Assembly: GCF_057098645.1 (NCBI RefSeq)
Contig: NZ_CM169472.1
Strand: one strand, 5' to 3'
DNA: 64,000 nt
Position numbers and translations under genes: made by a program. How positions within the stretch are numbered: the first letter of the stretch is position 1; each line of letters opens with the position of its first letter. Below, piece after piece: positions 7,997 to 64,000 of the stretch. The notes under the pieces were generated by a model. That model made no database searches. It saw only the letters and a program-made list of their open reading frames with translations, and had not been told where the DNA came from.

Positions 7997-8035
7997 CTCA
8001 AAAACACACGCTACCGCCCCTGGCTTTACAGCAAC
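7997..8035 (-). promoter_or_regulatory. JUMPstart element with ops (GGCGGTAGCGTG on minus strand at 8007-8018) upstream of the O-antigen operon
   Basis: Exact ops 12-mer read on the minus strand; flanking bases acacgctaccgcccctggcttt are shared with the wza upstream copy at 33061-33082. Confidence 0.85.
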
Positions 8036-8245
8036 CAGAGCACTATCTGAATAACAAAGTTATAACCTGCCTCACCAGCCATAGCAAAGCATTATAATTT
8101 CAACTCTCAATTGTCTTACTAAATACTGGCAGAAACAAGGAAAATCCGACAAAAAATCGGAGTAACATTTTTTACTTAGTGTAATAACCGCAGAGACGTT
8201 AGCTGGCGTTGTTCTTTCTAACATGTGACTGCTAATGCTCGAAAT

Positions 8246-23894: not shown

Positions 23895-24443
23895 TTATTT
23901 AGTTTCAACGCGTTCGCGTATCACCACTGCGGGATTCCCCCGGCAAACCACATTTGCCGGAAGCGATTTAAAAACACTGCTTCGTGCACCCACGACGGTG
24001 CCGTCGCCAATCGTGACGCCAGGGGCAACAAAAACATCGGTTGCCAGCCAGCATTTCTCGCCAATCACAATAGGCGTGGCATTAATGGTGAAATGTTGAC
24101 TTGCATGGTCGTGGCTACCGGTGCATAAATAACTTTTTTGCGATATCACCGAATGTGCGCCAATGGTTATTTCACCGAGGGTATATAAATTGACGTCATC
24201 GCCGACCCACGCGTAATCACCTAAGGTTAATTTCCACGGATAGGTAATTTTTACTGACGGACGAATAACTACGTTTTTTCCTATTTTTGCGCCGAATAAA
24301 CGTAATAAAAAAGCCCGCCAGCGATACAATACTTGTGGCGACCAGGCAAATATTGTTGCCTGTACTGCCCACCATAATTGCACTTTAATAGCGTTGCCGC
24401 CCCGGAACCCTTTCGGCACCGAGAAACCGCTTAAATCTTGCAT
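23895..24443 (-). CDS. wcaF: Colanic-acid acetyltransferase WcaF (hexapeptide repeat)
   Basis: 182 aa; left-handed beta-helix repeats; conserved position. Confidence 0.88.
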   Translation of the reverse strand: MQDLSGFSVPKGFRGGNAIKVQLWWAVQATIFAWSPQVLYRWRAFLLRLFGAKIGKNVVIRPSVKITYPWKLTLGDYAWVGDDVNLYTLGEITIGAHSVISQKSYLCTGSHDHASQHFTINATPIVIGEKCWLATDVFVAPGVTIGDGTVVGARSSVFKSLPANVVCRGNPAVVIRERVETK

Positions 24444-31743: not shown

Positions 31744-32883
31744 TTACCAGTTATGAATGTCGCTGGCTGTATCCGTCATGTAACGGACACCGCTAATAGT
31801 TGGCAGCAACTGATTGATCAGACGGTTCCAGCGGGAAACCGGGGCGGTGGTGACATACACCACGTCATAAGGTTGCAGGCGGAATTCTGTCGCCATCACC
31901 AGCGACGTCGCATCGGACATATCCAGCTGGTAGATATTGGCAATCTTGCCATTACGCCCGCCCTCGCCTTTCAGCGGACGAATGACAAAGATGCCGCTGG
32001 CGTTGGAGGTGGTCATGTCGATGCCTTCAGCATTACCCAGGGCTTCAGTCAGGGTCATGCCGCTAAAGTCCATTTTCAGGGTGCTCTGTTTCTTCACTTC
32101 ACCCATCACAAATACTTTCAGATCATCATTACGCGGCACGTAGAGAATATCGCCGGGATAAAGCAGTCGGTTCTGATTGAGGTCGCCGTTTTGCATCAGC
32201 GCCTGCAAAGAAATGCGTTCTTCACGACCATTGTGTGTTAGCACCACGTTGCGCCAGTCAGCGGTGTCGGTCAGGCCACCTGCGGCGTTGATGGCGTCGA
32301 GAATAGTCAGTGGTACGTTGGTGATCGCCTGTTGACCGGATTTATTCACCTGACCTGAGATATAGGCCTTTTGTGAGCGGAAGGCGGCGATATTAACGTC
32401 CACCTGCGGGTCAGCGATGTACGTCGCTAAGCGCCCGGTAATATCACTGCGGATTTCAGCGAGCGTTTTCCCGACTACGTGAACCTTGCCGATATACGGG
32501 TAGAACATGGTGCCGTCAGGCTGTACCCAGTTGCCGGTGTCACTGGAGCTGCGGTACTGACCGGCTGGCGTGGTGAGTTCCGGGTGATCCCAGACGGTGA
32601 CATTAAGAACGTCCCCCGGCCCGACGCGATACTGGTAATTCGCGATCTCGCTTTCCAGCGTCATATTGGGGCGCGCTACGTTGGGTCGTGGACGTAATTG
32701 GTCAATCAGGCGCGGGGTCAACGGATAAACATTCACCATTTTGTCGAGATCGAAATCAGCGTCCTGCTGTTTGATGACGTCTTTGCCCATCGTCGACATA
32801 TTGCTGCCCGGAAGTACTGTGCAACCGCTTATCAAGGTTACTGACACCAATAATGGCATCAATTTCATTTTGGATTTCATCAT
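31744..32883 (-). CDS. wza: Outer-membrane polysaccharide export lipoprotein Wza
   Basis: 379 aa; lipoprotein signal (LISGC); conserved first gene of colanic-acid operon. Confidence 0.93.
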
Positions 32884-33051
32884 TGTTTATTTATCACTTT
32901 GGCAGAGTAATTATCCTGTGCACTATTAATAGCAATGTCGCCATGCACATTTACCTTGCAGTTAATTGAATACAAATTTAACTGGCATCAGTCCTAAAAA
33001 AATTGATTTCATCCGCAGGCTATTGACAGAATAATTCAGACTGGTCTTTCA

Positions 33052-33090
33052 GGCATCCAGACACGCTACCGCCCCTGGCTTTTTAGCTAC
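33052..33090 (-). promoter_or_regulatory. JUMPstart element with ops (GGCGGTAGCGTG on minus strand at 33062-33073) upstream of wza
   Basis: Exact ops 12-mer; about 180 bp upstream of the wza start. Confidence 0.85.
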
Positions 33091-33541
33091 CAATACACTG
33101 ATTTAGCTTAATTTTTCAAACCCTCTCTGCATACAATCGTTGATGAGAAAGGGTTATTGCGGAAATTAACTTCCGAATATAAGGTGACATTATGGTAATT
33201 GAATATTGGCTCTCCAATAATGCAGGAGGAAGTGTTACAGCTAACGGAATAGCAGGCAAGGTAACAATTCGGCAATTGGCTATTTTTAAGAATTATATTA
33301 AGTGTCATTCAATATGGTTTTTAGGAGTTTCTTTAGGTTGACAATATTTAATATTGCGTCTCCACATGCGATATTTCTTAAATAATGTTTTATTATTACC
33401 ACTTTTAATTCAGGGATAATGTGAGGTTATTACCCTCAAATAATATGAGATAAATAGTGCTGCAACATTGCATTTTTGCCCCGATTTATCCATGATCGAA
33501 TTGTGACATTTGTCATACAACGAATAGGTTTTGTACTTACT

Positions 33542-35125
33542 ATGGAATGGATTGCCGATCCGTCTATCTGGGCCGGGTTAATCACGCTGATTGTGATCGA
33601 ACTGGTCCTCGGCATTGATAACCTGGTCTTTATTGCCATCCTCGCCGAAAAACTACCGCCGAAGCAGCGCGACCGCGCACGGGTTACCGGGCTGCTGCTG
33701 GCGATGTTAATGCGCCTGTTACTGCTGGCGTCAATCTCCTGGCTGGTCACCCTGACTCAACCGCTGTTCAGCTTCCGCTCGTTTACCTTTAGCGCCCGCG
33801 ACTTAATCATGCTGTTTGGTGGTTTCTTCCTGTTGTTCAAAGCCACGATGGAGCTGAACGAACGGCTGGAAGGGAAAGACAGCAATAATCCCACACAACG
33901 CAAAGGTGCGAAGTTCTGGGGCGTGGTGACGCAAATTGTGGTACTGGACGCCATTTTCTCACTCGACTCAGTGATTACCGCCGTCGGGATGGTCGACCAT
34001 TTACTGGTCATGATGGCCGCCGTGGTTATCGCTATCAGCCTGATGTTGATGGCCAGCAAGCCGTTAACGCAATTTGTTAACAGTCACCCGACGATCGTTA
34101 TTCTCTGCTTAAGCTTCCTGTTGATGATTGGCTTTAGCCTGGTGGCAGAAGGTTTCGGCTTCGTCATTCCGAAAGGCTACCTGTACGCTGCCATTGGTTT
34201 CTCGGTGATGATCGAGGCGCTCAATCAGTTGGCTATCTTTAACCGGCGACGTTTTCTTTCCGCTAACCAGACGCTGCGCCAGCGGACTACCGAAGCGGTA
34301 ATGCGCCTGCTTAGCGGGCAAAAAGAAGATGCGGAACTGGACGCCGAAACCGCGTCCATGCTGGTGGATCATGGTAACCAGCAGATCTTTAATCCGCAGG
34401 AACGGCGGATGATTGAGCGGGTACTAAATCTTAACCAGCGTACCGTCAGCAGCATTATGACGTCGCGCCACGATATTGAGCATATCGATCTCAACGCGCC
34501 GGAAGACGAGATCCGCCAGTTGCTGGAGCGAAATCAGCATACGCGGCTGGTGGTTACCGACGGTGATGACGCAGAAGATTTGCTCGGTGTTGTTCACGTT
34601 ATCGACCTGCTACAACAGTCTCTGCGCGGCGAACCGCTCAACCTGCGGGTGTTGATTCGCCAGCCGCTGGTGTTCCCGGAAACCTTGCCGTTGTTACCTG
34701 CCCTGGAGCAGTTCCGTAATGCCCGCACGCACTTTGCTTTTGTGGTGGATGAGTTTGGCTCGGTGGAAGGGATTGTGACATTAAGTGACGTCACTGAAAC
34801 CATTGCCGGTAACTTACCGAACGAAGTGGAAGAGATCGACGCCCGCCATGATATTCAGAAGAATGCGGACGGTTCCTGGACGGCGAATGGTCATATGCCG
34901 CTGGAGGATCTGGTGCAATATGTGCCGCTGCCGCTGGATGAAAAACGTGAATATCACACCATTGCCGGGCTGTTGATGGAGTATTTGCAGCGTATTCCAA
35001 AACCTGGCGAAGAAGTTCAGGTGGGGGATTATTTGCTTAAAACGTTGCAGGTAGAAAGCCATCGCGTGCAGAAGGTGCAGATTATACCGCTGCGTAAGGA
35101 TGGCGAGATGGAGTACGAGGTGTGA
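33542..35125 (+). CDS. yegH: Inner-membrane protein YegH (TerC-like membrane domain plus CBS pair plus CorC/HlyC C-terminal domain)
   Basis: 527 aa from ATG 33542; track ORF begins 22 codons upstream. Confidence 0.85.
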
Positions 35126-48044: not shown

Positions 48045-48225
48045 AAGAAATCCTTTCTTAGAGAATTATTGAGGTCCGGTATCATACCGATTGCAATAAT
48101 GAAATAAGAGCAAACGAAGAAACTTTCAGAATTAGGCCCGGCGGCGCAGAAAATTTTGCTATTCGCCTCGCAAGAACGGAGAGCCGTCGATTGACACTAA
48201 GGGCGGAGTGACATAATTACAGGAG

Positions 48226-48376
48226 TGAGGGTTAGGGAGAAGTTTCCCCCTCCCCCTGGTGTTCTTAGTAAGCCTGGAAGCTAATCACTAAGAGTATCAC
48301 CAGTATGATGACGTGCTTCATCATAACCCTTTCCTTATTTAAAAGCCCTCTTCTCCGGGAGAGGGTTCCCCGTTTT
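48226..48376 (+). ncRNA. sibA: Sib antisense sRNA, copy 1 (sibA-like antitoxin RNA); ends approximate
   Basis: Sigma70-like promoter (TTGACA 48191-48196, 17-bp spacer, TAATTA 48214-48219); fully antisense to ibsA; hairpin 48346-48365 followed by a T-rich run. Confidence 0.7.
48265..48324 (-). CDS. ibsA: Type I toxin peptide IbsA (19 aa, MMKHVIILVILLVISFQAY)
   Basis: Translated directly from the minus strand; matches my recollection of K-12 IbsA (from memory, not searched); too short to appear in the ORF track. Confidence 0.85.
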   Translation of the reverse strand: MMKHVIILVILLVISFQAY

Positions 48377-48561
48377 AGCGTCCCGCTGAAATCGTCGGCT
48401 TACCTCCTTTCGCCCTGAATGCAGTCTATCGCTGACTTGCGGATAAAATAGTTTCAAGTGTGATTATTGCGTAACGACTCGCAAAGAATATTTGCTGGCA
48501 GGATCGCAGACTGCAAAGCCTGCAGATTGACAATCTTATCGTGAAGGCATACTTTCAGGAG

Positions 48562-48705
48562 TGAGGGTAGAGCGGGGTTTCCCCCGCCCTGGTAGTCTTA
48601 GTAAGCGGGGAAGCTTATGACTAAGAGCACCACGATGATGAGTAGCTTCATCATGACCCTTTCCTTATTTAAGGCCCCTTCCTCGGGAGGGGCTTTCCCG
48701 TTTCA
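48562..48705 (+). ncRNA. sibB: Sib antisense sRNA, copy 2 (sibB-like); ends approximate
   Basis: Promoter TTGACA 48527-48532 / TACTTT 48550-48555; antisense to ibsB; terminator hairpin about 48674-48693 then T-rich run. Confidence 0.7.
48598..48654 (-). CDS. ibsB: Type I toxin peptide IbsB (18 aa, MMKLLIIVVLLVISFPAY)
   Basis: Translated directly from the minus strand; matches my recollection of K-12 IbsB (from memory, not searched). Confidence 0.85.
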   Translation of the reverse strand: MMKLLIIVVLLVISFPAY

Positions 48706-48889
48706 GCGTCCCGCTGAAATCTTCGGCTTACCTCCTTTCGCCCTGTATGCAGTCTATCGCTGACTTGCGGATAAAATAGTTTCAAGTGTGATTATTGCGT
48801 AACGACTCGCAAAGAATATTTGCTGGCAGGATCGCAGACTGCAAAGCCTGCAGATTGACAATCTTATCGTGAAGGCATACTTTCAGGAG

Positions 48890-49033
48890 TGAGGGTAGAG
48901 CGGGGTTTCCCCCGCCCTGGTAGTCTTAGTATGCTGGGTAGCTAATCACTAAGAGCACCACGATGATGAGTATCTTCATCATGACCCTTTCCTTATTTAT
49001 GGCCCCTTCCTCGGGAGGGGCTTTCCCGTTTCA
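48890..49033 (+). ncRNA. Sib antisense sRNA, copy 3 (third tandem module); ends approximate
   Basis: Promoter TTGACA 48855-48860 / TACTTT 48878-48883, identical to copy 2; terminator hairpin about 49003-49022. Confidence 0.65.
48926..48982 (-). CDS. Ibs-family type I toxin peptide, third copy (18 aa, MMKILIIVVLLVISYPAY)
   Basis: Translated directly; differs from the copy-2 peptide at positions 4 and 15 (L to I, F to Y). Confidence 0.75.
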   Translation of the reverse strand: MMKILIIVVLLVISYPAY

Positions 49034-60433: not shown

Positions 60434-60766
60434 ATGGCTGGTTGGTTTGAACTCAGTAAGAGCAGTGATAATCAGTTCCGGTTTGTGCTAAAAGCGGGCA
60501 ATGGTGAGACTATCCTCACCAGCGAGCTTTATACCTCAAAAGCCTCTGCGGAAAAGGGCATCGCGTCGGTGCGTAGCAACAGCCCGCAAGAAGAACGCTA
60601 TGAGAAAAAAACGGCAAGTAACGGCAAATTCTATTTCAATCTGAAAGCCGCTAATCATCAAATTATCGGCTCCAGCCAGATGTACGCCACCGCGCAATCT
60701 CGTGAAACCGGAATTGCCTCCGTTAAAGCCAATGGCACAAGCCAGACGGTGAAAGACAATACGTAA
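60434..60766 (+). CDS. yegP: UPF0339 (DUF1508) tandem-repeat protein YegP
   Basis: 110 aa from ATG 60434 (MAGWFELSK...) with AAGGAG RBS; two internal about 50-aa repeats. Confidence 0.85.
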   Translation: MAGWFELSKSSDNQFRFVLKAGNGETILTSELYTSKASAEKGIASVRSNSPQEERYEKKTASNGKFYFNLKAANHQIIGSSQMYATAQSRETGIASVKANGTSQTVKDNT

Positions 60767-60912: not shown

Positions 60913-62274
60913 ATGTTTAAACCGGAACTCCTTTCCCCGGCGGGAACGCTGAAAAATATGCGTTACGCTTTCGCTTATGGCGCAGATGCTGTTTATGCGG
61001 GCCAGCCGCGTTACTCCCTGCGTGTGCGCAACAACGAATTCAACCACGAAAATCTTCAGCTCGGCATCAATGAAGCCCACGCGCTGGGGAAAAAGTTTTA
61101 TGTCGTGGTCAACATTGCACCGCACAACGCCAAGCTGAAAACCTTTATCCGTGACCTGAAACCGGTGGTGGAAATGGGGCCGGATGCGCTGATTATGTCC
61201 GATCCAGGGCTGATTATGCTGGTGCGTGAGCACTTCCCTGAAATGCCGATCCACCTCTCGGTGCAGGCTAACGCCGTAAACTGGGCGACGGTGAAATTCT
61301 GGCAGCAAATGGGCCTGACCCGCGTGATCCTCTCTCGCGAGCTGTCGCTGGAAGAGATTGAAGAGATCCGCAATCAGGTGCCGGATATGGAGATCGAGAT
61401 CTTCGTTCACGGCGCACTGTGCATGGCCTACTCCGGTCGCTGCCTGCTCTCTGGCTATATCAACAAGCGCGATCCGAACCAGGGTACCTGCACCAACGCC
61501 TGCCGCTGGGAGTACAACGTCCAGGAAGGGAAAGAAGATGACGTTGGCAACATCGTACACAAGTACGAGCCGATTCCGGTGCAAAATGTTGAGCCGACGC
61601 TGGGTATCGGCGCGCCAACCGACAAAGTGTTTATGATCGAAGAAGCCCAGCGTCCGGGCGAGTATATGACCGCGTTTGAAGATGAGCACGGCACTTACAT
61701 CATGAACTCGAAAGATCTGCGCGCCATCGCCCATGTAGAACGCCTGACCAAAATGGGCGTGCATTCGCTGAAAATCGAAGGCCGTACTAAATCTTTCTAC
61801 TATTGCGCACGCACCGCACAGGTTTACCGTAAAGCTATCGATGACGCCGCTGCGGGCAAACCGTTCGATACCAGCCTGCTGGAAACTCTGGAAGGTCTGG
61901 CGCATCGTGGCTATACCGAAGGTTTCCTGCGTCGTCATACTCACGACGATTATCAGAACTACGAATACGGTTATTCAGTTTCTGACCGCCAGCAGTTTGT
62001 TGGTGAGTTTACCGGTGAGCGCAAGGGGGACCTCGCGGCGGTAGCGGTGAAAAATAAATTCTCCGTTGGCGACAGCCTTGAGCTGATGACGCCGCAAGGC
62101 AACATTAACTTTACCCTTGAGCACATGGAAAACGCCAAAGGTGAAGCGATGCCGGTCGCACCAGGCGATGGTTATACTGTGTGGCTCCCGGTCCCGCAGG
62201 ATCTTGAGCTCAATTACGCTCTGCTGATGCGTAATTTCTCCGGGGAAACCACGCGTAACCCACACGGTAAGTGA
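60913..62274 (+). CDS. yegQ: Peptidase U32-family protein YegQ (TrhP-like)
   Basis: 453 aa; MFKPELLSPAGTLKNMRYAFAYGADAVYAG typical of U32 family. Confidence 0.92.
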   Translation: MFKPELLSPAGTLKNMRYAFAYGADAVYAGQPRYSLRVRNNEFNHENLQLGINEAHALGKKFYVVVNIAPHNAKLKTFIRDLKPVVEMGPDALIMSDPGLIMLVREHFPEMPIHLSVQANAVNWATVKFWQQMGLTRVILSRELSLEEIEEIRNQVPDMEIEIFVHGALCMAYSGRCLLSGYINKRDPNQGTCTNACRWEYNVQEGKEDDVGNIVHKYEPIPVQNVEPTLGIGAPTDKVFMIEEAQRPGEYMTAFEDEHGTYIMNSKDLRAIAHVERLTKMGVHSLKIEGRTKSFYYCARTAQVYRKAIDDAAAGKPFDTSLLETLEGLAHRGYTEGFLRRHTHDDYQNYEYGYSVSDRQQFVGEFTGERKGDLAAVAVKNKFSVGDSLELMTPQGNINFTLEHMENAKGEAMPVAPGDGYTVWLPVPQDLELNYALLMRNFSGETTRNPHGK

Positions 62275-62358
62275 TTAATTTCGATTATTTTTCCCGGATG
62301 GAAAATTCTTAGAAACCGATCACATACAGCTGCATTTATTAAGGTTATCATCCGTTTC

Positions 62359-62446
62359 GCTGAAAAACATAACCCATAAAATGCTAGCTGTACCAGGAAC
62401 CACCTCCTTAGCCTGTGTAATCTCCCTTACACGGGCTTATTTTTTT
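62359..62446 (+). ncRNA. cyaR: CyaR (RyeE) Hfq-dependent sRNA
   Basis: gctgaaaaacataacccataaaatgctagctgtaccaggaaccacctccttagcctgtgtaatctcccttacacgggcttatttttt matches my recollection of CyaR (from memory, not searched); terminator hairpin plus T-run. Confidence 0.85.
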
Positions 62447-62604
62447 ATGCATAAGCCCTATCTCTGGTAACCGTCTTCCATTGACCACATCGATAGAATC
62501 CTCCTTCATAGCACGATGCCTTTCACTTATCGGCATCGTGCTCCCACAGGTTCCGGCTACGCACAGCCAGAACGCGCATATTTGACGCTTACCAAAAAAT
62601 ATTC

Positions 62605-62922
62605 TCACTCTCCACATTTGAATGTCAGACGAGCGACACCATGTAATCCTACACCTTCTGTCTTCAGCTCAACTATTTGCATTTTTTTGCCCTGAGTAAC
62701 ACAGAAATGAGTTGCATCATTTTTTACTATATTTTCTGCACCAGATATTCTACCCCTGGCTAAAGAAGCTTCGGCTTCGGTGTAGTATTGGTTATCGAGT
62801 TTACGCTGAATATTACTTTTATATGCAAGACCAAATTTACCGATACTTGTCTCATCATTATGCACAGCACAACCAGACATAATAAAAATACTAATTAATG
62901 ATATAGCAGCTATCTTTTTCAT
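62605..62922 (-). CDS. yegR: Small lipoprotein YegR
   Basis: 105 aa from ATG 62920-62922 (MKKIAAISLISIFIMSGCAV, lipobox MSGC); low-GC gene; track ORF extends 20 codons upstream. Confidence 0.8.
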   Translation of the reverse strand: MKKIAAISLISIFIMSGCAVHNDETSIGKFGLAYKSNIQRKLDNQYYTEAEASLARGRISGAENIVKNDATHFCVTQGKKMQIVELKTEGVGLHGVARLTFKCGE

Positions 62923-63327
62923 CTCACCTTCCCCCATTAAATACCAACGACACTCTCTAGTGTTTAAATATAATAATGGCATGATTATTATAATTGAATA
63001 GGATTATAATAAATGTTCTGTACAACATTTCCTACATAAGTAGGAATTACGGACATTGAGGCCCTTCAGGGTAACTCCATGGGGGCTTTAATATATTATA
63101 TTGAAGATGCCACTGTTTAGTTGAATATTAGGTATATGCTCTTTTTTGAAATTTATCGGTGGCAGCCGTTAGTATTCGCTGTCCCCATTGCAAGCTCCTG
63201 GTGGTAACCACTGAATCCTCCATACTTGAACTGACTTTTTATCCTCCGACTTTCATCCTGTTCTGACTCCACCTTTTGTTTTCTGCTCTACACTATCTAC
63301 AGACCAATCATAAAGGCACATACGATC

Positions 63328-64000
63328 ATGGCAGAATTTCCCGCCAGCTTACTGATTCTTAATGGCAAAAGTACTGACAATTTACCCTTGCGCGAAGCAA
63401 TTATGCTGTTGCGTGAGGAAGGAATGACGATCCATGTGCGGGTCACCTGGGAGAAAGGCGATGCCGCACGATATGTAGAGGAGGCCCGGAAGTTGGGCGT
63501 CGCAACGGTGATTGCTGGTGGTGGCGATGGCACCATTAATGAAGTTTCTACGGCGTTGATTCAGTGTGAGGGGGATGACATACCCGCGCTGGGAATTTTG
63601 CTATTAGGAACCGCCAATGATTTTGCCACCAGTGTAGGGATTCCTGAGGCACTGGATAAGGCGCTGAAACTGGCAATTGCCGGTGACGCCATTGCGATAG
63701 ATATGGCGCAGGTCAACAAACAAACCTGTTTTATTAATATGGCGACAGGCGGATTTGGGACGCGTATTACCACAGAAACGCCGGAAAAATTAAAAGCCGC
63801 GCTGGGTAGCGTCTCTTACATCATTCATGGCTTAATGCGTATGGATACTCTGCAACCGGACCGTTGTGAAATCCGCGGTGAAAACTTTCACTGGCAAGGT
63901 GACGCCCTGGTCATTGGTATTGGTAACGGGCGTCAGGCCGGTGGCGGTCAGCAATTGTGTCCGAACGCGTTAATTAACGATGGCTTGCTGCAACTGCGCA
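63328..64000 (+). CDS. yegS: Lipid kinase YegS (DAGK-catalytic family); partial, continues beyond window end
   Basis: ATG at 63328 opens [41 protein letters not shown]...[11 protein letters not shown]; no stop before the window end, so absent from the ORF track. Confidence 0.88.

Follow-up and report, generated by a model that had tools for sequence, protein, structure and literature searches.

An unoccupied phage P2 attachment site inside the CyaR terminator, next to a yegR islet that is most likely the remnant of an earlier P2-like integration

Phages have been described that integrate into the 3' ends of tRNA, tmRNA and sRNA genes. Phage P2 uses Int, a tyrosine integrase that acts together with IHF, and its excision needs Cox. 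The chromosomal site of P2 is called locI, which we take to be the site analyzed here. Barreiro and Haggard-Ljungquist are said to have described the locI site and the P2 remnant of E. coli K-12 in the Journal of Bacteriology in 1992. The K-12 remnant is the closest counterpart of the locus that we have studied in a window of 64,000 nucleotides from contig NZ_CM169472.1 (RefSeq assembly GCF_057098645.1), to which all coordinates refer unless another sequence is named. Both strains have the same locus (yegQ-cyaR on one side, yegR-yegS on the other) and the same 27-bp core, and the window represents the empty allele. The two differ only by a 629-bp prophage stump in K-12 and by the U-tract of the sRNA gene cyaR, which has 6 T in K-12, derived from the phage copy, and 7 T in the window. 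That an empty P2 attB is found where K-12 has a stump is already known. It is an ordinary polymorphism, in which a characterised att site routinely has or lacks a prophage stump, and although it is the main point of the analysis it matters little. Its chief use is a clean annotation, in which the last 27 bp of cyaR are labelled as the P2 attB.

The site resembles the integration sites in tRNA, tmRNA and sRNA genes in that the P2 core covers the 3' stem and the tail of a structured RNA gene, which the phage copy would restore. It differs in its target, which is the terminator of an Hfq-dependent sRNA and not a tRNA-like structure. In the open-access literature that we searched, no paper links cyaR to the P2 att site. 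A survey of the P2 family from 2011 states that P2-type integrases insert 'between other genes', whereas the present core lies inside cyaR. A further parallel is the 'grounded prophage' idea (PMC6379469). The yegR islet that follows cyaR would fit this idea with its intact left core, apparently decayed right core and putative arm-site relic, and K-12 would add a second, younger layer in front of the islet. In contrast to that idea, however, the older layer is without a phage gene, and yegR is without a phage homologue and is found elsewhere on plasmids and at IS-flanked sites. Taken as one reading, we consider it very probable that the interval is an unoccupied P2 attachment site and that the yegR islet beside it is most likely the remnant of an earlier P2-like integration.

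Between positions 60500 and 64000 the open reading frames and the sRNA gene follow each other in the order yegQ/trhP (plus strand), cyaR, yegR (minus strand) and yegS (plus strand). We compared this arrangement with 120 Enterobacterales cyaR loci, found with a conserved CyaR pattern in one genome per species. The conserved left neighbour of cyaR, yegQ/trhP (60913..62274, plus strand, 453 aa; from the ORF listing and the annotation of matching genomes), lies 5' of cyaR in nearly all of them. Its conserved right neighbour is the lipid kinase gene yegS, the 5' part of which fills 63329..64000 on the plus strand (ORFs, annotation and synteny in the 120 loci). The cyaR (ryeE) gene itself occupies 62359..62445 on the plus strand, as placed by Rfam and by coordinates mapped from the K-12 annotation. 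The Rfam model RF00112 gives 100.7 bits at 62357-62442, compared to a gathering score of 47, and is matched over all of its positions (1-85 of 85). Terminator and fold predictions place the Rho-independent terminator at 62410..62446 (plus strand), with an 11-bp stem (62410-62437), a 6-nt loop and a U-tract; the stem is followed by TATTTTTTT. The predicted fold of the window CyaR is that of K-12 CyaR. An intact CyaR with its terminator at 62446 had been called in the original prediction, and this holds. Upstream of the gene we noticed by eye a TCACA half-site as a candidate element for cAMP-CRP-dependent transcription (62320-62324, with a centre about 42 bp 5' of +1) and TATCAT (62346-62351) as a candidate -10 element. 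The yegR gene is convergent with cyaR and separated from it by 159 bp.

A search of phage genomes with the 3' region of cyaR led to P2. The window sequence 62419-62445, AATCTCCCTTACACGGGCTTATTTTTT, is identical in 27/27 positions to positions 24356-24382 of the P2 genome (NC_001895), and several Peduovirus genomes are 27/27 identical to it as well. In NC_001895 these positions carry the annotation 'attP' and 'Int attP core'. According to the same annotation the P' arm, the Cox sites and int flank the core on one side, and the IHF site, the P arm and ogr on the other. In the window the core forms the last 27 bp of cyaR, where it spans the CyaR terminator from its loop through the 3' half of the stem to the U-tract. 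Since the core is located inside the terminator, integration would split cyaR and the copy of the core brought in by the phage would rebuild it. A P2-type integrase together with IHF would recombine the attB core with the identical attP core, and the integrated prophage would then come to lie between cyaR and yegR, with ogr beside cyaR and int beside yegR. The sRNA would survive through the restored 3' end, and CyaR is kept whether the site is empty or filled. We infer this mechanism from the annotation of P2 and from the established knowledge on P2 Int. The site in the window is likely functional for P2, and strains with the window allele would be expected to be good hosts for lysogenisation by P2, and hence for P4-helper lysogenisation, at this position.

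The comparison with K-12 is straightforward. The annotation of MG1655 lists cyaR, the 'cryptic prophage PR-X' (2167183-2167811, with ogrK and the yegZ pseudogene), yegR and yegS, just as the original prediction had supposed when it placed ogrK and yegZ between cyaR and yegR. It had proposed an alignment with K-12, and this alignment falls into two blocks, 60913-62445 and 62428-64000, which overlap by 18 bp and enclose the 629-bp segment that is found in K-12 only; the K-12 arrangement is therefore not a contiguous cyaR-yegR. At the left K-12 junction the core AATCTCCCTTACACGGGCTTATTTTTT is complete, and K-12 CyaR is identical to the window through the core. At the right junction merely the last 18 bp of the core are left, and they are preceded by sequence of gene D. 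The stump thus consists of ogrK, the 3' end of gene D (yegZ) and the truncated 18-bp right core. It contains neither int nor cox and for this reason is locked in place. In the window, the interval from cyaR to yegS contains no phage gene and no ORF that matches a PHROG, and ogrK and yegZ are absent. We also observed unequal identity to K-12 on the two sides of the att core: the left block has 22 mismatches in 1,533 bp (98.6%), the right block 4 mismatches in 1,573 bp (99.75%). L129, a locus labelled Escherichia that is without yegR, shows the reverse and a stronger contrast (98.4% left, 88% right). From these contrasts the att site looks like a recombination boundary.

How often the site is occupied was estimated with rules for joining BLAST pieces. 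The set consisted of 5,426 complete E. coli genomes, among which laboratory derivatives of K-12 are abundant. A 231-bp query centred on the att site was found in one place in 4,573 genomes (84%), a number that includes the K-12 type since pieces were joined. The K-12-type stump junction is present in 359 genomes (6.6%), many of them laboratory derivatives of K-12. This leaves about 4,214 genomes (~78%) that are contiguous like the window. A junction between cyaR and the P side of P2 was detected in 1,167 genomes (21.5%). The contiguous class and the P2-junction class sum to 5,381, so that the estimate is internally consistent. The original prediction that the window represents the unoccupied state of the site agrees with the perfect P2 core and with the contiguous majority; what it had missed is that P2 has its attB in the CyaR terminator.

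Occupied sites come in several forms. E. coli B has a decayed P2-like prophage of about 22 kb here, in which ogrK adjoins cyaR and int adjoins yegR, and the order of genes is ogrK, D', tail and baseplate genes, cargo, A, cox, C and int. Its core is full on the left and has one mismatch on the right. EC-07 retains ogrK, D, T' and I' in a stump of 2.6 kb, and in E. albertii two cores enclose a stump of 3.4 kb. At the yegR side, the stumps of K-12 (L001 3813-3830) and EC-07 (L004 6001-6018) have the same 18 bp of the core (TACACGGGCTTATTTTTT), equivalent to a start at 62428 in the window. The deletions start in different genes, in gene D in K-12 and in gene I in EC-07. Microhomology was considered as the cause of the common endpoint and rejected, as at most 2 bp are common. 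The endpoint at core position 9/10 in both strains suggests an aberrant deletion mediated by the integrase rather than random loss. Outside E. coli, P2-like int, ogr or arm sequences lie beside cyaR in Enterobacter, Citrobacter youngae, a Buttiauxella MAG and a MAG of an unclassified Enterobacteriaceae (L012, L029, L035, L088 and L120), and the cores of these loci differ from that of P2 by 2-6 bases. This makes the CyaR terminator a site of integration for P2-like elements far outside E. coli as well. One contig filed as 'MAG: Collinsella sp.' (JAIJJM010000051.1, L125, 9.7 kb) combines an E. coli-type cyaR with a P2 core free of mismatches and encodes an Ogr with 100% identity, and this bin is almost certainly contaminated with E. 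coli.

With P2-like prophages so common at this position, as the junction in 21.5% of the genomes indicates, the empty site of the window might be a derived state, reached after the lineage had carried and then lost a full prophage or a stump of the K-12 type. Since excision leaves a perfect core behind, cured and naive sites are indistinguishable, and the uneven flank identity to K-12 (98.6% against 99.75%) is compatible with recombination around the site. Nevertheless, we consider a former occupancy of this kind improbable. A stump as in K-12, with its right core cut to 18 bp and without int and cox, does not allow precise excision, and it would be removable solely through replacement by homologous recombination. 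Moreover, the empty state is that of the majority (~78%), and up to the end of the core the window has the arrangement of the relatives that are without yegR.

We turn to the DNA between the core and yegS. Alignment to three yegR-less loci (L129, L131 and L013) delimits an islet of about 800 bp (62447..63247) with an overall GC content of ~39%. Its first base, 62447, directly follows the core and the U-tract, and its end lies near 63247. The short arrangement without yegR is found in L129 and L131, both labelled Escherichia, and in E. albertii, and the yegR-less Escherichia have clean junctions that are colinear with the junctions in other genera. The GC content of the islet lies 11-13 percentage points below that of its surroundings. 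The composition is uneven: the yegR coding sequence has 36.5% and the spacer between yegR and yegS 37.9%, with a local minimum of 30%, compared to 49.9% in the whole window, whereas the first 158 bp (62447-62604) have 48%. The description of the 500 bp after the terminator as strongly AT-rich was therefore overstated, as 62447-62946 has 40.6% GC, and the AT-rich parts are the yegR coding sequence and the spacer. In complete E. coli genomes a clean junction without yegR was not found; the single match with at least 80% coverage consists of two pieces that span about 800 bp. From this we conclude that the islet is fixed in E. coli. Matches of the islet to plasmid DNA were uninformative, being chromosomes or fragments filed as plasmids.

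Presence and absence alone give no direction, and in principle yegR might be ancestral here and repeatedly lost in other Enterobacterales. Nothing specific speaks for such a history, to which we assign hardly any probability. A tblastn search detected no YegR in the cyaR loci of the 120 species. Among the 85 loci with yegS downstream, the modal distance from the end of the core to the start of yegS is about 80 bp, a value found in more than 40 loci from many genera, compared to 883 bp in the window. Together with the clean, colinear junctions of the yegR-less Escherichia and the low GC content of the islet, this effectively refutes an ancestral yegR. A horizontal acquisition of the islet, as the original prediction had proposed, is supported by its absence from sister lineages with a clean empty site and from the 120 other loci, its start right at the end of the att core, the GC content of 36-38% against 50%, and the presence of YegR homologues on plasmids and other mobile elements.

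The one modestly new element of the analysis is evidence that this fixed islet sits between fossil P2-type att elements. At its left end, 35 bp (62459..62493, plus strand) align locally to P2 (L002 1556-1591, spanning the annotated P arm at 1563-1590) and are a putative relic of an arm-binding site for a P2-type Int. The alignment scores 38, compared to a mean of 15.2 (sd 2.2, maximum 28) for shuffled sequences, none of which (0/500) reached 38; the z value is near 10. As a control, the inserts of more than 250 bp in 28 other species were treated alike; real P2 stumps gave z values of 12.5 and 14.1, and nearly all others stayed below 3. At the right end we find moderate evidence for a decayed att end (63185..63240, plus strand), which would comprise a stretch similar to the P' flank (63185-63213) and a pseudo-core (63214-63240). 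The pseudo-core matches the core in 18/27 positions. It is the best core-like match on either strand of 62447-63400 and abuts the ancestral flank CGACTTTCATCC. In a fixed register the probability of such a match is 2.2e-5, yet 18/27 or more was reached somewhere in the region in 10/300 shuffles. The stretch before the pseudo-core is similar to the P2 sequence in front of the core, at near-P2 spacing. Flank and core together score 22 against P2, with a null of 15.1 +/- 2.2, and 8/1000 shuffles reach this value; the P' side alone is weak, as 52/500 shuffles reach its score. A search of the islet for att cores had been proposed in the original prediction, and it returned these elements. Its statement that no prophage remnant lies between cyaR and yegR holds for genes but not for att elements, given the 35-bp arm relic and the apparently decayed core.

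These observations would be explained if the yegR islet was the leftover of an older P2-like integration, with the relic of the P arm at its left and the decayed core at its right end. K-12 would then have two layers in series, a younger stump in front of the older islet. We think the chances are slightly better than even that an ancient P2-like prophage integrated into the CyaR terminator in an ancestor of E. coli and that the islet is its final ~800 bp. The sequence identities, junctions and distribution were observed directly, and this origin we infer. Residual phage genes were not found in the islet; yegR is its sole gene, and the small ORFs are without a PHROG match. A rather unlikely, if by no means negligible, alternative is that the islet arrived independently of P2, by an illegitimate or IS-mediated event, with the 35 bp similar to the P arm as the scar of a P2 prophage deleted later and the pseudo-core as a chance match. 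In the two loci examined for it, a patch of an Enterobacter chromosome and a Klebsiella IncFIB plasmid, the YegR homologues are indeed IS-flanked. The different yegR loci have nothing but the coding sequence in common, and yegR could have entered an existing scar later. No phage with yegR was found, and the similarity at the right end is modest (8/1000 shuffles). On the other hand, the insert starts exactly after the last base of the core, and we saw no IS ends or transposase remnants. The pseudo-core lies beside the ancestral flank, precisely on the boundary and correctly oriented (fixed-register probability of about 2e-5), and the P'-flank-like stretch precedes it at nearly the spacing of P2. 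A single att-bounded element would account for both ends in one event.

If the islet is indeed a fossil P2-like integration, integration into this 27-bp site has taken place at least twice in the E. coli lineage. What is today regarded as the P2 'attB' in E. coli would structurally be an old attL, composed of a core and a degenerate Int arm site. The common endpoint of the K-12 and EC-07 stumps, which are independent of each other, would be in line with this reading. Such an origin would make the locus a small example of an sRNA terminator through which foreign DNA has entered repeatedly. The gene yegR, now wired to the acid-response regulator EvgA, may have been cargo of the element, which would provide a concrete origin for an uncharacterised, E. 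coli-restricted and EvgA-regulated lipoprotein gene.

The YegR family is mobile. Among 5.8 billion proteins, YegR is represented by 81 clusters, and almost all of the named ones are from Escherichia or Shigella. Homologues with 39-47% identity are encoded on 89 plasmids, 65 of them conjugative, in Klebsiella, Enterobacter, Citrobacter, Rahnella and Acinetobacter. In the one plasmid locus examined, the Klebsiella IncFIB plasmid, yegR lies between IS3, IS630 and IS26. Chromosomal homologues occur in the Enterobacter patch, which is rich in IS and Tn3 elements, and in at least three further neighbourhoods, making at least four contexts. The sequence that E. coli yegR and the other yegR loci have in common is confined to the coding sequence (62602-62931). 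In other enterobacterial loci a yegR homologue (77-82% identity; L136 3322-3651, L138 490-816) is followed directly by a second small lipoprotein gene (MMMRLPSTFAFLLLTGCSA...), and in two related loci (L138 and L139) a gene for the lysozyme inhibitor Ivy lies near the yegR homologue. E. coli has kept yegR alone, without the second small lipoprotein gene.

We also considered yegR as cargo of known phages and rejected this, because the matches in phage records and viral contigs are host flank at prophage edges. A tblastn search with YegR against 50,697 phage records returned two records, in both of which the match is host flank. In IMG/VR, the best 80 of 107 matches are all at least 95% identical to E. 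coli yegR and are nearly all located at the edge of a predicted prophage contig. YegR is matched by PHROG 21109 (E 4e-71). Beyond attR, the record ON470606.1 ('Escherichia phage vB_EcoM-720R8, partial genome') continues into host DNA with yegR, yegS and the gene for the gat repressor (32004-34824), and PHROG 21109 probably exists owing to over-extended prophage records such as this one.

The yegR gene of the window (62605..62922, minus strand) encodes a lipoprotein precursor of 105 aa, assigned by its ORF, by annotation and by Pfam PF27694, which is precomputed for homologues. The protein has the lipobox SGC with Cys18. In the family alignment G17 and C18 are invariant, and C74 and C103 are conserved. 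An AlphaFold2 model of the mature domain is confident, with a mean pLDDT of 79.9 and about 90 for residues 30-105. A search of NCBIfam with YegR returned weak similarity to signal peptides only. Upstream of the gene lies the palindrome TTCCTACATAAGTAGGAA (63029..63046), with one mismatch to the consensus of the EvgA box, and we take it to be a candidate EvgA box. It is the sole match to this consensus in the 64 kb, where 0.01 are expected by chance. According to a review, the yegR promoter is bound by EvgA (PMC8147483). Between the yegR stop codon and the P-arm relic, downstream of the gene, two perfectly complementary 11-bp arms surround an 11-nt loop (62510..62542), and this inverted repeat has a folding energy of -19.3 kcal/mol on the plus and -20.8 kcal/mol on the minus strand (z -5.9 and -4.8). 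We rejected this hairpin as an intrinsic terminator, since neither strand has a T-tract and it was not called as such.

Elsewhere in the window, three tandem SIB antitoxin RNAs are present at 48191-48997 (Rfam RF00113, 141-145 bits each). At the same locus four Ibs toxin genes are annotated in E. coli B, and K-12 has two copies here (sibA and sibB). The number of repeats thus varies between strains. On the minus strand, two JUMPstart elements and an algC RNA motif were detected (8007-8045, 33062-33100 and 18449-18498), which we take to be typical of polysaccharide clusters, such as those for colanic acid or O-antigen, upstream of the region.
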